DNA of 8,641 nt, from IMG/VR virus record IMGVR_UViG_2671180299_000012; one strand, given 5' to 3'. The first letter of the stretch is position 1. Each line of letters starts with the position of its first letter. A program made the translations under genes and the position numbers. This document shows positions 1,849 to 5,929 of this stretch, in pieces. The stretch comes from a virus. Taxonomy: Duplodnaviria > Heunggongvirae > Uroviricota > Caudoviricetes. The notes under the pieces are model-generated. The model was not told the DNA's origin, searched no databases, and worked only from the letters and a program-made list of their open reading frames with translations.

Positions 1849-2382
1849 ATGAACACCAAAATCAAATACGGCCTGTCGGCTGCCGTTCTGGCGCTGATTG
1901 CCGCTGGTGCGTCTGCGCCTGAAATTCTCGACCAGTTTCTTGACGAAAAAGAAGGTAACCACACCACGGCATACCGTGATGGTGCGGGTATCTGGACCAT
2001 CTGCCGTGGAGCCACCCGGGTGGATGGTAAGCCTGTTATTCCTGGCATGAAGCTGTCGAAGGGGAAATGCGACCAGGTTAACGCCATTGAGCGTGATAAG
2101 GCGCTGGCATGGGTGGCGAAAAACATCAAAGTGCCACTGACTGAACCCCAGAAAGCGGGTATTGCGTCATTCTGTCCTTACAACATTGGCCCAGGTAAGT
2201 GTTTCCCGTCGACGTTTTATAAACGAATTAATGCAGGCGATCGCAGGGGGGCGTGTGAGGCGATTCGCTGGTGGATTAAGGACGGTGGCAGAGACTGCCG
2301 TATTCGCTCAAACAACTGTTACGGTCAGGTATCCCGTCGCGACCAGGAGAGTGCGCTGGCGTGCTGGGGAATTGACAGATAA
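1849..2382 (+). CDS. SAR endolysin (phage lysozyme, T4-lysozyme-like GH24 fold with N-terminal signal-arrest-release domain)
   Basis: 177-aa ORF. The N-terminus YGLSAAVLALIAAGASAP is a weakly hydrophobic Gly/Ala/Ser-rich segment typical of SAR domains. It is followed by the catalytic E-x8-D-x5-T triad (E-GNHTTAYR-D-GAGIW-T). Overall similarity to P21 R and P1 Lyz type endolysins. Confidence 0.9.
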   Translation: MNTKIKYGLSAAVLALIAAGASAPEILDQFLDEKEGNHTTAYRDGAGIWTICRGATRVDGKPVIPGMKLSKGKCDQVNAIERDKALAWVAKNIKVPLTEPQKAGIASFCPYNIGPGKCFPSTFYKRINAGDRRGACEAIRWWIKDGGRDCRIRSNNCYGQVSRRDQESALACWGIDR

Positions 2383-2471
2383 GCAGAATATTTTGCTGAA
2401 AAATGCGGTTTGCTCGCACGGACGGATAACACGAAATCCTGCGAACTGACAAAAACTAAGTGAATAAAAGT

Positions 2472-2510
2472 AAAAACCCCGTTTGTTGGCTGCAAGCGGG
2501 GTTTTGTGTT
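2472..2510 (+). terminator. Rho-independent terminator downstream of the endolysin gene
   Basis: AAAAACCCCG (2472-2481), a 15-nt loop, then CGGGG (2497-2501) followed by TTTTGTGTTT. This is a GC-rich stem with a T-tract on the + strand and an A-tract on the other side, so it may act in both directions. Confidence 0.6.
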
Positions 2511-2541
2511 TCCTGACTCTGGAAAAGTCAAAGGAGAAAGT

Positions 2542-2679
2542 GTGTTTGATTTTAGCAAACTGATTCGGGAGATTCGAGTGATGGCTGAAAAATTATCCAC
2601 CTGGAAGTTCATTCTTATCTGGCTGGTGTTTGTGATTATGGCCTCCGGTTATTTCATCGGTCAGATACGCTGGTGGTGA
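2542..2679 (+). CDS. Small single-pass membrane peptide between endolysin and spanins (function unknown; candidate lysis accessory protein)
   Basis: 45-aa ORF from the GTG at 2542 (AAGGAG at 2531-2536, 5-nt spacer), or 32 aa from the ATG at 2581. It ends at TGA 2677-2679, one nucleotide before the Rz ATG. It contains one strongly hydrophobic stretch, WKFILIWLVFVIMASGYFIGQI. Below the 60-aa threshold of the ORF track. Confidence 0.4.
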   Translation: MFDFSKLIREIRVMAEKLSTWKFILIWLVFVIMASGYFIGQIRWW

Positions 2680-2680
2680 A

Positions 2681-3148
2681 ATGAACCGCGTACTGTGCGT
2701 GGTCATCATTGCCCTGCTGGTGGCCTGTGGTGCGCTTAGTCTGGGGCTGAATCATTACCGTGATAACGCCATAACCTACAAAGAGCAGCGCGATAAAAAA
2801 GTCAGTGAGCTGGAGCAGGCAAATGCAACCATTACTGATATGCAGCAGCGCCAGCGTGATGTTGCTGCACTTGATGCCAGATACTCGAGGGAATTAGCCG
2901 ATGCGAGAGCTGAAAATGAAACTCTTCGCGCTGACGTTGCCGCTGGTCGTAAGCGCCTGCGGATCAACGCCACCTGTCCAGGCTCCGTGCGTGAAGCCCC
3001 CGCCACCTCCGGCGTGGATAATGCAACCGGCCCCCAACTGGCAGACACCGTTACACGGGATTATTTCACCCTCAGAGAGCGGCTGATGACGATGCACAAG
3101 CAACTGGAAGGGGCACAGGACTATATCCGCACTCAGTGCCTGAAATAA
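2681..3148 (+). CDS. Rz-like inner-membrane spanin (i-spanin)
   Basis: 155-aa ORF with an N-terminal TM helix (VLCVVIIALLVACGALSLGL) and a charged, coiled-coil-prone periplasmic domain. It lies downstream of the endolysin and carries a nested +1-frame lipoprotein ORF, which is the classic Rz/Rz1 architecture. Confidence 0.85.
   Translation: MNRVLCVVIIALLVACGALSLGLNHYRDNAITYKEQRDKKVSELEQANATITDMQQRQRDVAALDARYSRELADARAENETLRADVAAGRKRLRINATCPGSVREAPATSGVDNATGPQLADTVTRDYFTLRERLMTMHKQLEGAQDYIRTQCLK
2901..3086 (+). CDS. Rz1-like outer-membrane lipoprotein spanin (o-spanin), embedded in the Rz gene in the +1 frame
   Basis: 61-aa ORF wholly inside Rz (alternative ATG at 2916). It has a signal peptide with a lipobox (LPLVVSAC) followed by a short proline-rich mature region (CGSTPPVQAPCVKPPPPPAW), the hallmark of Rz1 proteins. 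Confidence 0.8.
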   Translation: MRELKMKLFALTLPLVVSACGSTPPVQAPCVKPPPPPAWIMQPAPNWQTPLHGIISPSESG

Positions 3149-3480
3149 GTTTTGTTGATGCGCCGTATCGTCGCTGTATTCCCTCATTAACAGAGACCGC
3201 AGCCCGACAGGGAGACTCCTCTGCGCGAGTGTGCGGGGATAATCAAAAACGATACACACCGGGGTTTACCGCGTTAACGGAGCGCGGCGTTGTCCCCTCA
3301 TGGTCGCTGGTTCGGTGCGATGGTGGAAGAAACCGGACGATGTGTTACCTCGCAAGACCTGTTATGTCATGTGTCTGATTTGTGATTTAAGTCGGATAAT
3401 TGTCGTTGCCATTAAGCAGAGGATTGATGGCCGACAGGGTGGCATTGTTAGAATAAGACTTATTCTTATCTGTGCCGGGA

Positions 3481-3813
3481 ATGAAAATGAAAAGAAATCT
3501 TCCGTTAATTATTTTGTTGTCTTCTCTGGTTATGGGCTGTACGCAACATAAAACAGATATGCCCCGACAGTTGGTTAAGGCATTACCACAATATCCGGCC
3601 TATGCAGCGGCAAATTATATAAAGGGACGGGTTGATGTGAAGTTTGATATTGGTGCTGATGGTACTGTCACCCGAATTGAGTTTATCCGTTCAGAGCCGC
3701 ACCATCTGTTTGATGAGCAGGTTGTAAAGGCGATGGCAAAATGGCGATTTGAGAAGGACAGGCCGCGTAAAGGCGTGAAGAAAACGTTTATCTTTAGTCC
3801 TTCTGCACCCTGA
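3481..3813 (+). CDS. Lipoprotein with TonB C-terminal domain (phage moron; function unknown)
   Basis: ORF with possible starts at GTG 3472, ATG 3481 or ATG 3487. It has a signal peptide with a lipobox (LSSLVMGC) and Thr at +2. The mature part (YPAYAAANYIKGRVDVKFDIGADGTVTRIEFIRSEPHHLFDEQVVKAMAKWRFE) aligns residue by residue with the E. coli TonB C-terminal domain ([54 protein letters not shown]). There is no proline-rich spacer or N-terminal TM anchor. A possible sigma70 promoter lies upstream (TTGATG, ~19 nt, TAGAAT at about 3424-3454). Confidence 0.7.
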   Translation: MKMKRNLPLIILLSSLVMGCTQHKTDMPRQLVKALPQYPAYAAANYIKGRVDVKFDIGADGTVTRIEFIRSEPHHLFDEQVVKAMAKWRFEKDRPRKGVKKTFIFSPSAP

Positions 3814-3944
3814 TTATTTCATCAGAAATTAATTATCACTCTGTTGTTATTCTGTACATTCCGGCTGGGTAAGTCTTGTTCCGCCGGGTATGAAGATGAA
3901 ATATTGTTGGAGGACAGTGGGTACCTGCTCCTGTAACCGAACGT

Positions 3945-4169
3945 TCATTTCTCGTTATTTGTCATGCTGGCCGGGCGCAGATGCGTTGCATCTGTTGCCA
4001 GCCTTCTCCTGCAGGCTTCAATAACCCACGCTGAAAAGTTACCGGAACCTTTATGTTCAAGGGCGATATTGATCTGTTCAATCATGTGATTGGGAAACGG
4101 ATATTGCGGGTTGTGGTTCTGCGGGTCCGGTTTTTCGATGACATATTTATTTCCTTTACTGATTGCCAT
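3945..4169 (-). CDS. Arc/Mnt-like ribbon-helix-helix DNA-binding protein
   Basis: 74-aa minus-strand ORF. The segment PQYPFPNHMIEQINIALEHKGSGNFSAWVIEA matches the Arc pattern PQFNLRWPREVLDLVRKVAEENGRSVNSEIYQRV, with the beta-strand, first helix and G-x-S/N turn in register. It is divergent from the HNH gene with only 16 bp between the two start codons. Confidence 0.6.
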   Translation of the reverse strand: MAISKGNKYVIEKPDPQNHNPQYPFPNHMIEQINIALEHKGSGNFSAWVIEACRRRLATDATHLRPASMTNNEK

Positions 4170-4185
4170 ATGACGGGGATTTTAC

Positions 4186-4551
4186 ATGGCTGAGCTTCGT
4201 ACACTCCAGAGCAGAATCAAAACACTGAATACCCGACGGGTGAATATTCTGAAGGGTGAACAGCGTCGTGTCAGTGGCAGTGCACGTGTTTCCCTCAAGC
4301 GTCATATCTGGCTCAGGGACGCCGGGCAGTGCCGTCTCTGTGGTCGTGTGGTTGACCTCTGTGACAGTGAACTCGATCACCGAATTGCACTTCAGTTCGG
4401 TGGTGGTAATGAGGAGACGAATCTCTGGACGCTCTGTACCGAATGCCATCGACAAAAGTCTGCTCGTGAAGCGGCGAGTGATATGCCGGACCCGACGCTG
4501 CCGGAGGTGTCCGGAGGTAGTGGCAGAGAGGACGACATCATCGGACTGTAA
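4186..4551 (+). CDS. HNH endonuclease (packaging-associated HNH of cos-type, HK97-like phages)
   Basis: 121-aa ORF with a CRLCG ... DHRIALQFGGGNEETNLWTLCTECHRQK HNH/zinc-finger motif. It sits immediately upstream of the cos-like region and terS, the characteristic position of HNH proteins that assist terminase in HK97-like phages. Its last 23 codons (from 4483) lie inside tandem repeat copy 1. Confidence 0.85.
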   Translation: MAELRTLQSRIKTLNTRRVNILKGEQRRVSGSARVSLKRHIWLRDAGQCRLCGRVVDLCDSELDHRIALQFGGGNEETNLWTLCTECHRQKSAREAASDMPDPTLPEVSGGSGREDDIIGL

Positions 4552-5003
4552 CCCGACCCCGGGGGGGGTATCATCCGGCGTAAAAAACGATCGCTTTGGA
4601 CACCGCCCCCCGTCTCACGCAGAGAAAAAATTCCCGTTTCAGGGCAGTTAACATGTTAACTGGCTGTCCGGGCATTTTTGCGGTTTTTATCTTTATTATT
4701 CAGTTTGTTGCGTGGAAAAAATGTTAACAGGCTTTTTCAGCAAATGTTAACCAGGCAGCAGTTAACATTTGCGGCATGAGACGCCGGGAAAAATGGGCTG
4801 AACCATACCCGGCTGAGTGCGTTATGGACCCGGGAGGAGGCTGTGCTGACAACGCAAAAACGAAAATTTGCGCTGGCGCTCATGTCCGGGAAAAACAAAA
4901 CAGCGTCAGCCATTGCCGCTGGTTATTCGGCGAAGACCGCCAGGGTTAAAGGCTCGCAGCTGGCAAAAGATCCGGAGGTGCTTGCGTTTATAGCCCGTAA
5001 ACA
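4483..5003. repeat. Tandem direct repeat, copy 1 (~521 bp): HNH 3-prime tail + cos-like intergenic region + first 161 bp of terS
   Basis: Direct comparison with 5008..5526 gives about 13 differences in ~520 bp, including a 2-nt indel (ACCCC versus AGC before a G8 tract). The 161 bp of terS coding sequence is identical in both copies. Confidence 0.9.
4645..4768. promoter_or_regulatory. Putative cos / terminase-recognition region: 18-bp perfect palindrome plus ATGTTAAC motif array (copy 1)
   Basis: CAGTTAACATGTTAACTG (4645-4662) is a perfect 18-bp palindrome. Further ATGTTAAC motifs lie at 4721-4728 and 4744-4751, with the inverted form GTTAACAT at 4761-4768. The region sits between the HNH gene and terS, where cos lies in HK97/lambda-like phages. 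Function is inferred. Confidence 0.4.
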
Positions 5004-5076
5004 AGGTATGCCGGACCCGACGCTGCCGGAGGTGTCCGGAGGTAGTGGCAGAGCGGACGACATCATCGGACTGTAA
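4843..5076 (+). CDS. Duplication-derived chimeric ORF: terS N-terminal 55 codons fused to the duplicated HNH C-terminal tail (possible pseudogene or decoy)
   Basis: GTG start at 4843 with the same GGGAGGAGG RBS as the full terS. Residues 1-54 are identical to the terS N-terminus (MLTTQKRKFALALMSGKNKTASAIAAGYSAKTARVKGSQLAKDPEVLAFIARKQ). At the repeat junction (~5004-5007) it switches to GMPDPTLPEVSGGSGRADDIIGL, the HNH tail with one E-to-A change. Confidence 0.5.
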   Translation: MLTTQKRKFALALMSGKNKTASAIAAGYSAKTARVKGSQLAKDPEVLAFIARKQGMPDPTLPEVSGGSGRADDIIGL

Positions 5077-5526
5077 CCCGAGCGGGGGGGGTATCATCCG
5101 GCGTAAAAAACGATCGCTCCGGACACCGCGCCCCCTCTCACGCAGAGAAAAAATTCCCGTTTCAGGGCAGTTAACATGTTAACTGGCTGCCCGGGCATTT
5201 TTGCGGTTTTTATCTTTATTATTCAGTTTGTTGTGCGGAAAAAATGTTAACTGGCTTTTTCAGCAAATGTTAACCAGGCAGCAGTTAACATTTGCGGCAT
5301 GAGACGCCGGGAAAAATGGGCTGAACCATACCCGGCTGAGTGCGTTCTGGACCCGGGAGGAGGCTGTGCTGACAACGCAAAAACGAAAATTTGCGCTGGC
5401 GCTCATGTCCGGGAAAAACAAAACAGCGTCAGCCATTGCCGCTGGTTATTCGGCGAAGACCGCCAGGGTTAAAGGCTCGCAGCTGGCAAAAGATCCGGAG
5501 GTGCTTGCGTTTATAGCCCGTAAACA
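5008..5526. repeat. Tandem direct repeat, copy 2 (~519 bp)
   Basis: See copy 1. The offset between copies is 525 bp before the indel and 523 bp after it. Copy 2 runs directly into the remainder of the full-length terS. Confidence 0.9.
5168..5291. promoter_or_regulatory. Putative cos / terminase-recognition region (copy 2)
   Basis: Same 18-bp palindrome (5168-5185) and ATGTTAAC motifs (5244-5251, 5267-5274; inverted 5284-5291) as copy 1. All motif cores are identical between copies; the substitutions fall between them. Confidence 0.4.
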
Positions 5527-5929
5527 GTGCGAGACGGTGGAGGTGGATGAGGTTCCTGTTTACCGGCAGAAAAAATCAGAGCAGGAGGATAAACCCCGTC
5601 GCCGTGAGGCGGCTGCAATACCACAGCCGGACGAAAACAATCCGGAGATGCCACCGTCCGCGGTGATGTCTCCTGGTATTGAATATATGGAGGATGGTCT
5701 TCCCGATCCGGTGAAAGCCATGGGGCGGATCCTGGTGGAAAACCTCTGCATTGATCCGAAACTGGCACTGGATGCGGCCTGGCGTCTGGCGCAGTTCACG
5801 CACCATAAAAAAGGGGATACCGGGAAAAAATCGGCAAAAGGTGATGCCGCGAAAAAAGCGGCTAACCGTTTTGCGGTGCCACCGCCACCCCGACTGGTGG
5901 TGAATAACGATAATGAGGAAAGCGGATGA
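5366..5929 (+). CDS. Terminase small subunit (Terminase_2-type)
   Basis: 187-aa ORF with a GTG start and GGGAGGAGG RBS. The N-terminus LTTQKRKFALALMSGKNKTASAIAAGYSAKTARVKGSQLAKDPEV matches the conserved HTH DNA-binding region of small terminases. Its stop overlaps the terL start (ATGA at 5926-5929), indicating translational coupling. Confidence 0.85.
   Translation: MLTTQKRKFALALMSGKNKTASAIAAGYSAKTARVKGSQLAKDPEVLAFIARKQCETVEVDEVPVYRQKKSEQEDKPRRREAAAIPQPDENNPEMPPSAVMSPGIEYMEDGLPDPVKAMGRILVENLCIDPKLALDAAWRLAQFTHHKKGDTGKKSAKGDAAKKAANRFAVPPPPRLVVNNDNEESG

Follow-up and report, generated by a model that had tools for sequence, protein, structure and literature searches.

Short cis-antisense RNAs that cross the start codon and the Shine-Dalgarno (SD) sequence of their target are known from SymE/SymR, a type I toxin-antitoxin (TA) system of Escherichia coli, and from RNA-OUT of IS10. 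In phage P22, the ~69-nt antisense RNA sar lies over the ribosome-binding site (RBS) of ant, a gene that is silent in the lysogen. Lambdoid late operons are read by Q-modified polymerase, and lysis cassettes can contain dual-start holin/antiholin genes, such as lambda S105/S107 and S21 68/71, or additional genes such as P2 lysA, which lies between the endolysin and spanin genes. Two further systems are relevant: hokW-sokW of the Shiga toxin 2 (Stx2) prophage Sp5, a type I TA system that speeds up killing and raises phage release twofold upon induction (PMC8621323), and the morons, which, as described by Juhala et al. (2000; cited in PMC4104026), are promoter-gene-terminator inserts that are expressed in the lysogen and located between genes adjacent in relatives. 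Here we analyze a small module in the lysis cassette of a caudoviricete prophage of E. coli, contained in a stretch of 8,641 nt (IMG/VR record IMGVR_UViG_2671180299_000012; hereafter the window). Between the endolysin gene R and the spanin gene Rz, this module comprises a GC-rich hairpin, a leader, and a gene for a 45-residue membrane peptide of the family PHROG 6632. We consider the chances about even that it is a type I TA-like module that is kept silent in lysogens, with the aid of a putative antisense RNA, and that is expressed late by Q-modified polymerase, its product being possibly toxic and involved in lysis.

The peptide gene and its hairpin

The original prediction, made from the nucleotide sequence of the window, had noted a hairpin with A and T tracts after the endolysin gene, an AAGGAG RBS and an open reading frame (ORF) of 32-45 residues that ends 1 nt before Rz, all of which are found where it had placed them. 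It had also stated that R abuts Rz in canonical cassettes, and this agrees with the compared loci, as R and Rz overlap by ATGA without any insert in lambda-type, phage-21-type and K-12 Qin cassettes. The ORF has 45 codons when counted from its GTG, and an in-frame ATG at 2581 would give 32 residues; its stop codon TGA (2677-2679) leaves a gap of 1 nt to the ATG of Rz. A 57-residue ORF from 2506, contained in the ORF-finder list, is an artefact, as the PHROG profile begins at its residue 13. With E = 1.2e-29, residues 1-45 match positions 1-45 of the PHROG 6632 profile, a 45-position family without assigned function, and the peptide is 100% identical to WP_000459345.1 of strain JKHS016, which the Prokaryotic Genome Annotation Pipeline (PGAP) calls a “hypothetical protein”; often, PGAP leaves the ORF without annotation. 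Searches with the peptide against Pfam, NCBIfam and PADLOC gave no match at E <= 0.1-1, holin families included.

Comparison with the homologues of Salmonella (67% identical) and Escherichia fergusonii (82% identical) indicates that the ORF is a real protein-coding gene under strong purifying selection. By Nei-Gojobori counts, the proportions of synonymous and nonsynonymous differences (pS and pN) over the whole ORF are 0.70 and 0.22 against Salmonella and 0.57 and 0.09 against E. fergusonii, and over codons 15-45 they are 0.91 and 0.22, and 0.72 and 0.10, respectively. The ratio of nonsynonymous to synonymous substitution rates (dN/dS) is about 0.04-0.13 for codons 15-45, with synonymous sites saturated, and ~0.1 overall, and the asymmetry of pS and pN is not seen in the other two frames. 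An exhaustive profile search found 41 clusters at 50% identity, with lengths of 42-54 residues and identities down to ~35%. Their alignment reads …SK[LI]I[RK]E[LIV]RxM..[KR]L..W[KR]F, followed by a hydrophobic helix and a variable end that often is …RWW; within the 41 clusters, F23 is invariant, E10, R12 and M14 are nearly so, and W21 and K/R22 are highly conserved. The single hydrophobic helix that had been predicted is confirmed as one hydrophobic stretch at residues ~23-42, a predicted transmembrane (TM) helix with a Kyte-Doolittle 19-residue maximum of 2.13. The 20 N-terminal residues are amphipathic and bear most of the charges, and the C-terminus is RWW, so that by the positive-inside rule the N-terminus is expected to be inside and about three residues outside. 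Size and TM helix thus agree with what is typical of type I toxins (<60 residues, hydrophobic), and the charged hydrophilic C-terminal domain of holins is not present, only R-W-W following the TM helix.

The hairpin ahead of this gene has 14 pairs, 6 of them G-C, and a 5-nt loop (AAAACCCCGTTTGT-TGGCT-GCAAGCGGGGTTTT); it is flanked by AATAAAAGTAAAAA on its 5' and TTTTGTGTTT on its 3' side, and a consensus scan calls it a terminator. The 163-nt intergenic RNA folds better than its own shuffles (z = -2.8). The features of an intrinsic terminator are found in both directions, with TTTTGTGTTT 3' of the stem on the plus strand and TTTTTACTTTTATT on the minus strand. Upstream of the hairpin, the tract (A/T)AAAAGC(A/G)AAA is kept in all lineages, and the outer 9 bp of the stem are conserved, with compensatory A-U/G-C changes in 4 pairs (RNAalifold). 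The inner stems vary in sequence among lineages, yet they pair within each, as judged from individual folds of the single sequences, the MAFFT/RNAalifold alignment comprising the outer 9 bp only. By eye, the wobble pairs render the plus-strand hairpin more stable in the window, and in E. fergusonii the minus-strand version is perfect. That G-U pairs favor one or the other strand depending on the lineage fits a use of the hairpin on both strands. Most probably, the hairpin acts in both directions and serves a cis-antisense RNA as terminator, too; an antisense RNA that ends there would account for the conserved A tract. A search of all Rfam families with E <= 1 assigned no family, and the sole match over the hairpin (2449-2538, minus strand) was to the rimP leader; this candidate was rejected, as its 29.9 bits are below the gathering score of 47 and reflect a generic similarity of a terminator plus U tract.

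To which gene does the hairpin belong? Since the recombination break-point in other prophages lies just before the hairpin, we assign it to the downstream peptide, and the comparative evidence indicates that the peptide module begins with it on the left and that it is not the terminator of the endolysin gene. It accompanies the peptide gene beside an unrelated endolysin of glycoside hydrolase family 19 (GH19) and in non-lysis contexts. Such a module would explain the apparent terminator amid the lysis operon. The original prediction had deduced from this terminator that there is either Q-dependent read-through or a separate promoter for the peptide and spanin genes, and of this the first option stands: within the ~36 nt from the hairpin to the start codon, the consensus scan found no sigma-70-like plus-strand promoter, which leaves upstream read-through by Q-modified polymerase as the only visible route for the expression of the peptide and the spanins. 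A candidate promoter in the 3' region of R (TTGACA at 2366-2371, the TGAATAAAA stretch) was dismissed, as it has no acceptable -10 or spacing.

The distribution of the module is wide. In H-19B, CP-1639, TL-2011c and many Stx1a, Stx2a and Stx2c phages, the R-Rz interval of 298 nt is 97-99% identical. Of 5426 complete E. coli genomes, 2027 have a match to it, and in 869, i.e. about a sixth of all, the match covers at least 80% of its length; in these records it is either unannotated or labeled “hypothetical protein”. The first ~156 nt after R match >2000 E. coli genomes irrespective of what comes next, which can be an antirepressor (ant) gene with a 48-residue ORF (Sakai Sp10, Sp15), two other micropeptide genes (O157 86-24, Sakai Sp14) or four consecutive micropeptide genes (strain EcPF18). 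All 96 retrieved enterobacterial loci have the hairpin-plus-ORF arrangement, and all of them are linked to an endolysin. A scan of viral sequences for related loci returned near-identical copies only.

The module is found in three types of cassettes. The holin, endolysin and spanin families are PF04971, PF00959 and PF03245 in E. coli and Escherichia albertii, PF16080, PF00959 and PF03245 in Salmonella, and PF16931, a GH19 endolysin and a DUF2514 spanin-like gene in E. fergusonii, and in all three types a hairpin with A and T tracts lies ~35-45 nt ahead of the ORF. Between the GH19 endolysin and the DUF2514 gene of E. fergusonii (locus L092, 2663-3142), two hairpin-leader-peptide modules are arranged in tandem, and the first peptide ends with …KWW-TGA-T-ATG followed by a short remnant, as though it once had abutted the spanin start, which suggests that modules were inserted serially at this position. 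Remote homologues, 36-48% identical, are encoded on phage contigs outside lysis cassettes: in L119 the gene follows one for a tail tip, in L116 it neighbors a head-tail adaptor region, in L118 it is surrounded by ParE/RelB toxin-antitoxin genes, and in L109 it adjoins PrlF/YhaV. The remote loci L116-L119 are not linked to an endolysin. The hairpin (GAAAGCCCCG…CGGGGCTTTC) is kept in L109, L111, L116, L117, L118 and L119, and only at one of the seven remote loci, L110, it is not present. The GC content of the module is 43%, versus 54-55% for R and Rz. Taken together, the sequence comparisons indicate that the hairpin, leader and ORF form an autonomous accessory module that has entered a phage-21-type lysis cassette at its R/Rz junction.

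In the 96 enterobacterial loci, the peptide stop always lies 1 nt before the i-spanin ATG (TGA-N-ATG). The original prediction had read this junction as a sign of coupling, of which the tight juxtaposition holds without exception. Rz has an SD-like GGTGGTGA of its own within the W-W-stop codons of the peptide, and translational coupling is therefore not required; the tight junction in enterobacteria may simply preserve this RBS.

At the R/Rz junctions of other E. coli prophages, different genes for tiny peptides with a single TM helix are found, in arrays of one to four (L005, 2656-2982; L007, ~2640-3141; L115, 5125-5271; L120, 5728-6054), such as a 60-residue MGKYKR… peptide, a 43-48-residue …SDKLIT… peptide and the 28-residue MSAELIRAMAFAIRIVAIAVLVWAIRWW, several of which end in WW or VG just ahead of the Rz ATG. 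In strain EcPF18, the homologue of the window peptide is without annotation.

The predicted antisense RNA and predicted translation starts

On the reverse strand, codons 3-6 of the peptide gene read TGCTAAAAT, a predicted extended -10 element (TGnTAnnnT). Of 11 diverged lineages, 9 carry this element at identical codon positions, which has P = 1.6e-8 given the protein sequences, and so do 7 of the 9 most diverged ones, with P <= 3.5e-7 for any bias at third codon positions (AT3) tried; the test resampled synonymous codons for each protein, and the chance rate of the motif was 0.2-34% per lineage. The motif is TGCTAAAAT also in E. fergusonii, E. albertii, the distant EcPF18 homologue and the remote L111, it is TGCTAATAT in Salmonella, TGCTAAGAT in L109 and L116, TGATAAACT in L117 and TGCTAGAAT in L118, and it persists where amino acids differ, as in L117, in which Ile (ATC) replaces Ser, or in L116, which encodes Arg by the rare AGG. 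A -10 element is present at the equivalent position also in two non-homologous peptides that share the leader, namely TATACT in the 60-residue peptide of L005 (O157, Sakai Sp14) and TGCTAGACT in the first peptide of E. fergusonii. Peptides in the interior of arrays, which have no preceding hairpin, also have no motif (by eye). Synonymous divergence is low in codons 2-13 (pS 0.23 versus 0.7-0.9 farther on), and 2542-2566 with the -10 motif is invariant in 90 of 90 E. coli-clade loci.

These data predict a constitutive cis-antisense RNA of ~80 nt over the RBS. It would start ~7 nt past the -10 element, on the start codon of the peptide (2541-2543), run leftward over start codon, RBS and leader, and end near 2465 at the hairpin and UUUUUACUUUUAUU; its predicted fold is a 5' stem-loop plus the terminator, with -21.9 kcal/mol. 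A second minus-strand promoter-like site, found by the consensus scan at 2664-2635, was discarded because its hexamers are not conserved in Salmonella and E. fergusonii (by eye).

The AAGGAG lies 5 nt ahead of the GTG start, and enterobacterial variants as well as the remote L109, L111 and L118 have a strong SD at 4-7 nt upstream of their start codon, which is GTG, ATG or TTG; in L116, L117 and L119, the SD is weaker or farther upstream. In the window, the pyrimidine tail of the terminator pairs with the SD, so that the RBS is occluded in the predicted minimum free energy (MFE) and centroid folds, and an equivalent SD-containing hairpin is found in almost all variants, including those with non-homologous leaders. 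The complement of this leader hairpin would form the 5' stem-loop of the modeled antisense RNA. Farther inside the gene, 10 of 11 lineages have an SD-like GGAG/GAGG at 4-11 nt upstream of Met14 (P = 3e-9 when the protein sequences are taken as given), and the codon of Glu10 is GAG in all 11. Internal SD and Met14 may thus give rise to two products of 45 and 32 residues, of which the antisense RNA would directly cover only the start of the longer one.

Known small RNAs (sRNAs) of prophages in enterohaemorrhagic E. coli (EHEC) were considered as candidates for an RNA of this locus. The anti-sRNAs of the AsxR/AgvB type and the Pas sRNAs are encoded near esterase and holin genes and not at R-Rz, and EcOnc11 lies downstream of Rz. 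EcOnc11 corresponds to a very strong peak in the Hfq cross-linking and analysis of cDNA (Hfq-CRAC) data, at L115 ~5820-5870 in Sakai Sp10, equivalent to ~3150-3900 in the window and on the strand of a YlcI/YnfO-family gene, which in the window is the leftward gene 3945-4169 (minus strand); EcOnc10 and EcOnc12 are found at equivalent sites.

Proposed mechanism and competing explanations

How might such a module work? In the lysogen, stray rightward transcription would halt at the hairpin, and in any message that passes it, the RBS would be folded away and the antisense RNA would pair with it, so that no peptide is made. Upon induction, Q-modified RNA polymerase would override the terminator, the sense RNA would exceed the antisense RNA, and the peptide would be made together with Rz and Rz1. 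It would then insert into the inner membrane as a tail-anchored protein with the N-terminus in the cytoplasm, where it most likely would perturb or depolarize the membrane as a non-essential helper in late killing or lysis. The elaborate silencing and the form of the peptide argue for a membrane-active, toxic, late-acting product, and a “membrane-depolarizing or toxic factor” is the most reasonable functional guess that we can derive. As the peptide gene has no toxin promoter of its own and further type I features are predicted ones, we file the module as a variant and not as a member of the type I TA systems.

Several observations weigh against this proposal. The -10 motif partly overlaps the conserved Ser-Lys, which the codon resampling corrects for under the assumption of independent lineages, and L119 (TAAGAT without TG) and L110 (motif lost) do not have the full motif. 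The -35 region is poor, with 3 of 6 matches, so that promoter activity would depend wholly on the extended -10. No Hfq-bound sRNA at the related L005-type module of Sakai Sp14 is listed in the Hfq-CRAC table of Tree et al. (2014), the -10 of Sp14 being weaker and without TG, and none of the Table S2 peaks mapped on Sakai Sp4, Sp6, Sp10, Sp14 and Sp15 lies inside the R-Rz interval; no Rfam family covers the locus. The peptide gene has no promoter of its own, unlike the classical type I toxins, and the remote homologues lie outside lysis cassettes, so that a role in lysis is a guess. In the window, which lacks a recognizable holin gene and has a truncated Q (see below), the module may perhaps never be expressed.

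Going further, it is possible, and we propose it more tentatively, that PHROG 6632 and its hairpin represent an unrecognized, widespread “late-operon type I toxin-antitoxin” family, in which a promoter-less toxic micropeptide would be locked threefold by the terminator, the RBS-occluding leader and a SymR/RNA-OUT-like RNA and be unlocked by antiterminated late transcription. In such a family, antagonistic long and short peptides would tune depolarization and lysis timing, and the same antisense-plus-terminator “head” would have been recombined onto several unrelated micropeptides at R/Rz.

Which other explanations could account for the arrangement? The peptide gene could be a hitch-hiking, moron-like gene of a small membrane protein that has no antisense regulator, the hairpin being a Q-overridable terminator, an insulator or a 3' stem-loop that stabilizes the S-R mRNA, and the minus-strand motif a by-product of the encoded residues or of codon preference. 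This would agree with the presence/absence polymorphism at a known hotspot that elsewhere carries ant or other small ORFs, with the lower GC content, with the good plus-strand terminator, and with the fact that no antisense RNA has been reported at related sites and Rfam gave no match. We nevertheless regard it as doubtful, as the motif persists through amino-acid changes and even in non-homologous leader-sharing peptides, with P values of 1e-7 to 1e-8 in the codon resampling, and as the hairpin travels with the peptide and not with R. The conserved upstream A tract, moreover, would be useless to a purely rightward terminator, save for a possible lengthening of the stem with the T tract.

An improbable alternative is that of a dedicated lysis regulator, i.e. 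an antiholin, a holin-like trigger of the signal-anchor-release (SAR) endolysin, or a coupled partner or regulator of the i-spanin Rz. The constant position between endolysin and i-spanin in all 96 enterobacterial loci, with a single nucleotide between the stop codon and the Rz ATG, could be taken in this sense, as could the single TM helix, the accumulation of other tiny TM peptides at the same junction, and P2 lysA, which occupies an analogous position. Yet the same peptide is combined with three unrelated holin/endolysin/spanin sets, remote members reside in tail, structural or accessory regions without nearby lysis genes, and many functional cassettes (lambda, phage 21, Qin) have no such peptide. 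The peptide matches no holin in Pfam and ends without a charged tail, and Rz owns its SD-like GGTGGTGA. A specific partnership with holin, endolysin or Rz is unlikely because the partners vary and the remote relatives are found in non-lysis contexts. Of the functions that the original prediction had offered, the holin-like and antiholin-like ones are thus weakened by the three partner sets, the remote contexts and the missing tail, and the membrane-depolarizing one stays the best guess.

A membrane peptide for lysogenic conversion or superinfection exclusion that is expressed in the lysogen would be in line with the moron-type position of the module, and small prophage membrane proteins often have such functions; we consider this very improbable in view of a terminator directly upstream, an occluded RBS, a predicted antisense repressor, no plus-strand promoter and no PADLOC match. 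That the interval is a non-coding spacer with a fortuitous ORF, functional only as terminator and as antisense or 3' untranslated region-derived sRNA, is hardly tenable, since, even if PGAP often omits the ORF and its 5' part shows nucleotide-level rather than clear protein-level constraint, the low dN/dS of codons 15-45, the preservation of frame, length and hydrophobicity across 41 clusters and the conserved SD and start codon contradict it, and the ORF is conserved in related phages, which the original prediction had named, next to a translation signal over 2542-2679, as a touchstone of a coding function.

Surroundings of the module and comparison with known systems

The features of the module and of the neighboring genes are compiled in Table 1.

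Table 1. Positions of module features and adjacent genes in the window
Feature	Position	Strand	Basis or remark
R21-type SAR endolysin gene (R)	1849..2382	+	PF00959, E = 2e-24; called lysozyme/endolysin in homologous records; context, outside module
Conserved non-coding 3' region of endolysin gene	2383..2458	+	common to prophages with differing downstream inserts
A tract, on the minus strand terminator U tract UUUUUACUUUUAUU	2459..2472	-	sequence; tract conserved across lineages
GC-rich hairpin, predicted bidirectional intrinsic terminator	2473..2505	both strands	terminator scan, folding, conserved outer pairs
T tract (TTTTGTGTTT region), plus-strand terminator	2506..2514	+	sequence, terminator scan
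Leader hairpin, UUUCCU paired with SD AGGAGA	2509..2538	+	MFE and centroid folds
SD AAGGAG of 45-residue form	2531..2536	+	sequence
45-residue membrane peptide gene, PHROG 6632	2542..2679	+	profile match, purifying selection, family alignment, hydropathy
Predicted extended -10 promoter TGCTAAAAT, inside codons 3-6	2549..2557	-	motif conservation
Predicted cis-antisense RNA, ~80 nt	2463..2543	-	promoter motif/terminator geometry, fold
Putative internal start: SD-like GGGAG 2567-2571, 9-nt spacer, Met14 ATG 2581-2583	2567..2583	+	lineage conservation
Rz i-spanin gene	2681..3148	+	PF03245, E = 4.5e-47; context
Rz1 o-spanin gene embedded in Rz	2901..3086	+	PF06085, E = 4e-20; context

Upstream of R, no holin gene is recognizable between the Q-like gene and the endolysin gene (743-1848 in the window). 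The match of the Q-like ORF at 743-1183 to the DUF1133 profile is confined to positions 1-120 out of 176, and 1149-1812 resembles a frameshifted PHROG 1085 protein that is present as pieces of 73 and 135 residues in different frames; a deletion in the source prophage seems to fuse Q to the PHROG 1085 gene. The R-proximal layout of the window is also found in Escherichia sp. MOD1-EC7003 (L099). Having no holin and a truncated Q, the source prophage looks defective, with the sequence of its module being identical to the common form. The conserved 3' region of R (2383-2458) contains a small inverted repeat (GGATAACACGAAATCC), which is recognizable in Salmonella, too. Downstream of Rz/Rz1, the ORF at 3472-3813 is lipoprotein-like and has the C-terminal domain of TonB (PF03544); its best PHROG, 1267, is labeled “Rz-like spanin”, which looks like a label carried over by position and not by similarity to Rz. 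Farther on, ~523 bp are duplicated in tandem (95-97% identical) at 4482-5530. The duplication extends from the end of an HNH-endonuclease-like ORF into the start of the gene for the small terminase subunit, with the result that the first copy (4843-5076) is truncated and the second (5366-5929) is full.

In the literature searched on the protein accession, on small lysis-cassette proteins and on type I TA systems of lambdoid lysis regions, no description of the ORF was found. The passages searched of the comparative Stx-phage study by Pinto et al. do not mention it, and those of the survey of type I TA systems by Fozo et al. apparently do not list the module. The module is thus widespread in Stx phages, including many Stx1/Stx2 phages such as H-19B, without an experimental record for the ORF or the RNA in the literature searched, and its components are of known types. 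If the proposal is correct, the module would add a new family to the few antisense-controlled membrane toxins, and it would illustrate a way to embed a toxin safely in a phage late operon, with silencing by terminator and antisense RNA and licensing by Q. It would then also contribute, as an accessory factor not yet studied, to how Shiga-toxin phages and the toxin are released. The R/Rz junction, for its part, is a hotspot for arrays of micropeptide genes.

With SymE/SymR and IS10 RNA-IN/RNA-OUT, the module shares the geometry of an antisense promoter just inside the 5' end of the target ORF, from which an RNA would run back across start codon and SD, and, as in SymR and RNA-OUT, this RNA would have ~70-80 nt and end at an intrinsic terminator. 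In contrast to these systems, the antisense RNA is a predicted one, the target is a 45-residue membrane peptide instead of an RNase-like protein or a transposase, and this target has no promoter and is placed behind a terminator in a Q-dependent late operon. The likeness to hok/sok, and to hokW-sokW in particular, consists in the small hydrophobic inner-membrane peptide, the Stx-type prophage and the (here predicted) control by antisense RNA. However, Pfam and NCBIfam show no sequence similarity to Hok, a mok-like leader ORF and an fbi/tac fold-back are both missing, the TM helix lies near the C-terminus here and near the N-terminus there, the module resides in a lysis cassette, and its toxicity is a proposal.

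P22 sar/ant is comparable in that a phage antisense RNA, in our case a predicted one, covers the RBS of a gene that is silent in the lysogen, but there the gene is another one and belongs to the immI region, and sar has no connection with either a membrane peptide or a late operon. With the dual-start holin genes, the module has in common that a small membrane protein is encoded in the lysis cassette with two conserved in-frame starts. It differs from them in that these starts are 13 codons apart, that there is a single TM helix, no charged C-terminal tail and no match to a holin family, and that relatives occur outside of lysis regions. Like a moron, finally, the module is inserted between genes that are normally adjacent, has a lower GC content and is distributed in a mosaic manner. 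Whereas a moron brings its own promoter and is expressed in the lysogen, this module has the order terminator-gene, no sense promoter, and an ORF whose stop codon abuts the ATG of Rz, and it thus appears to be built for silence in the lysogen.

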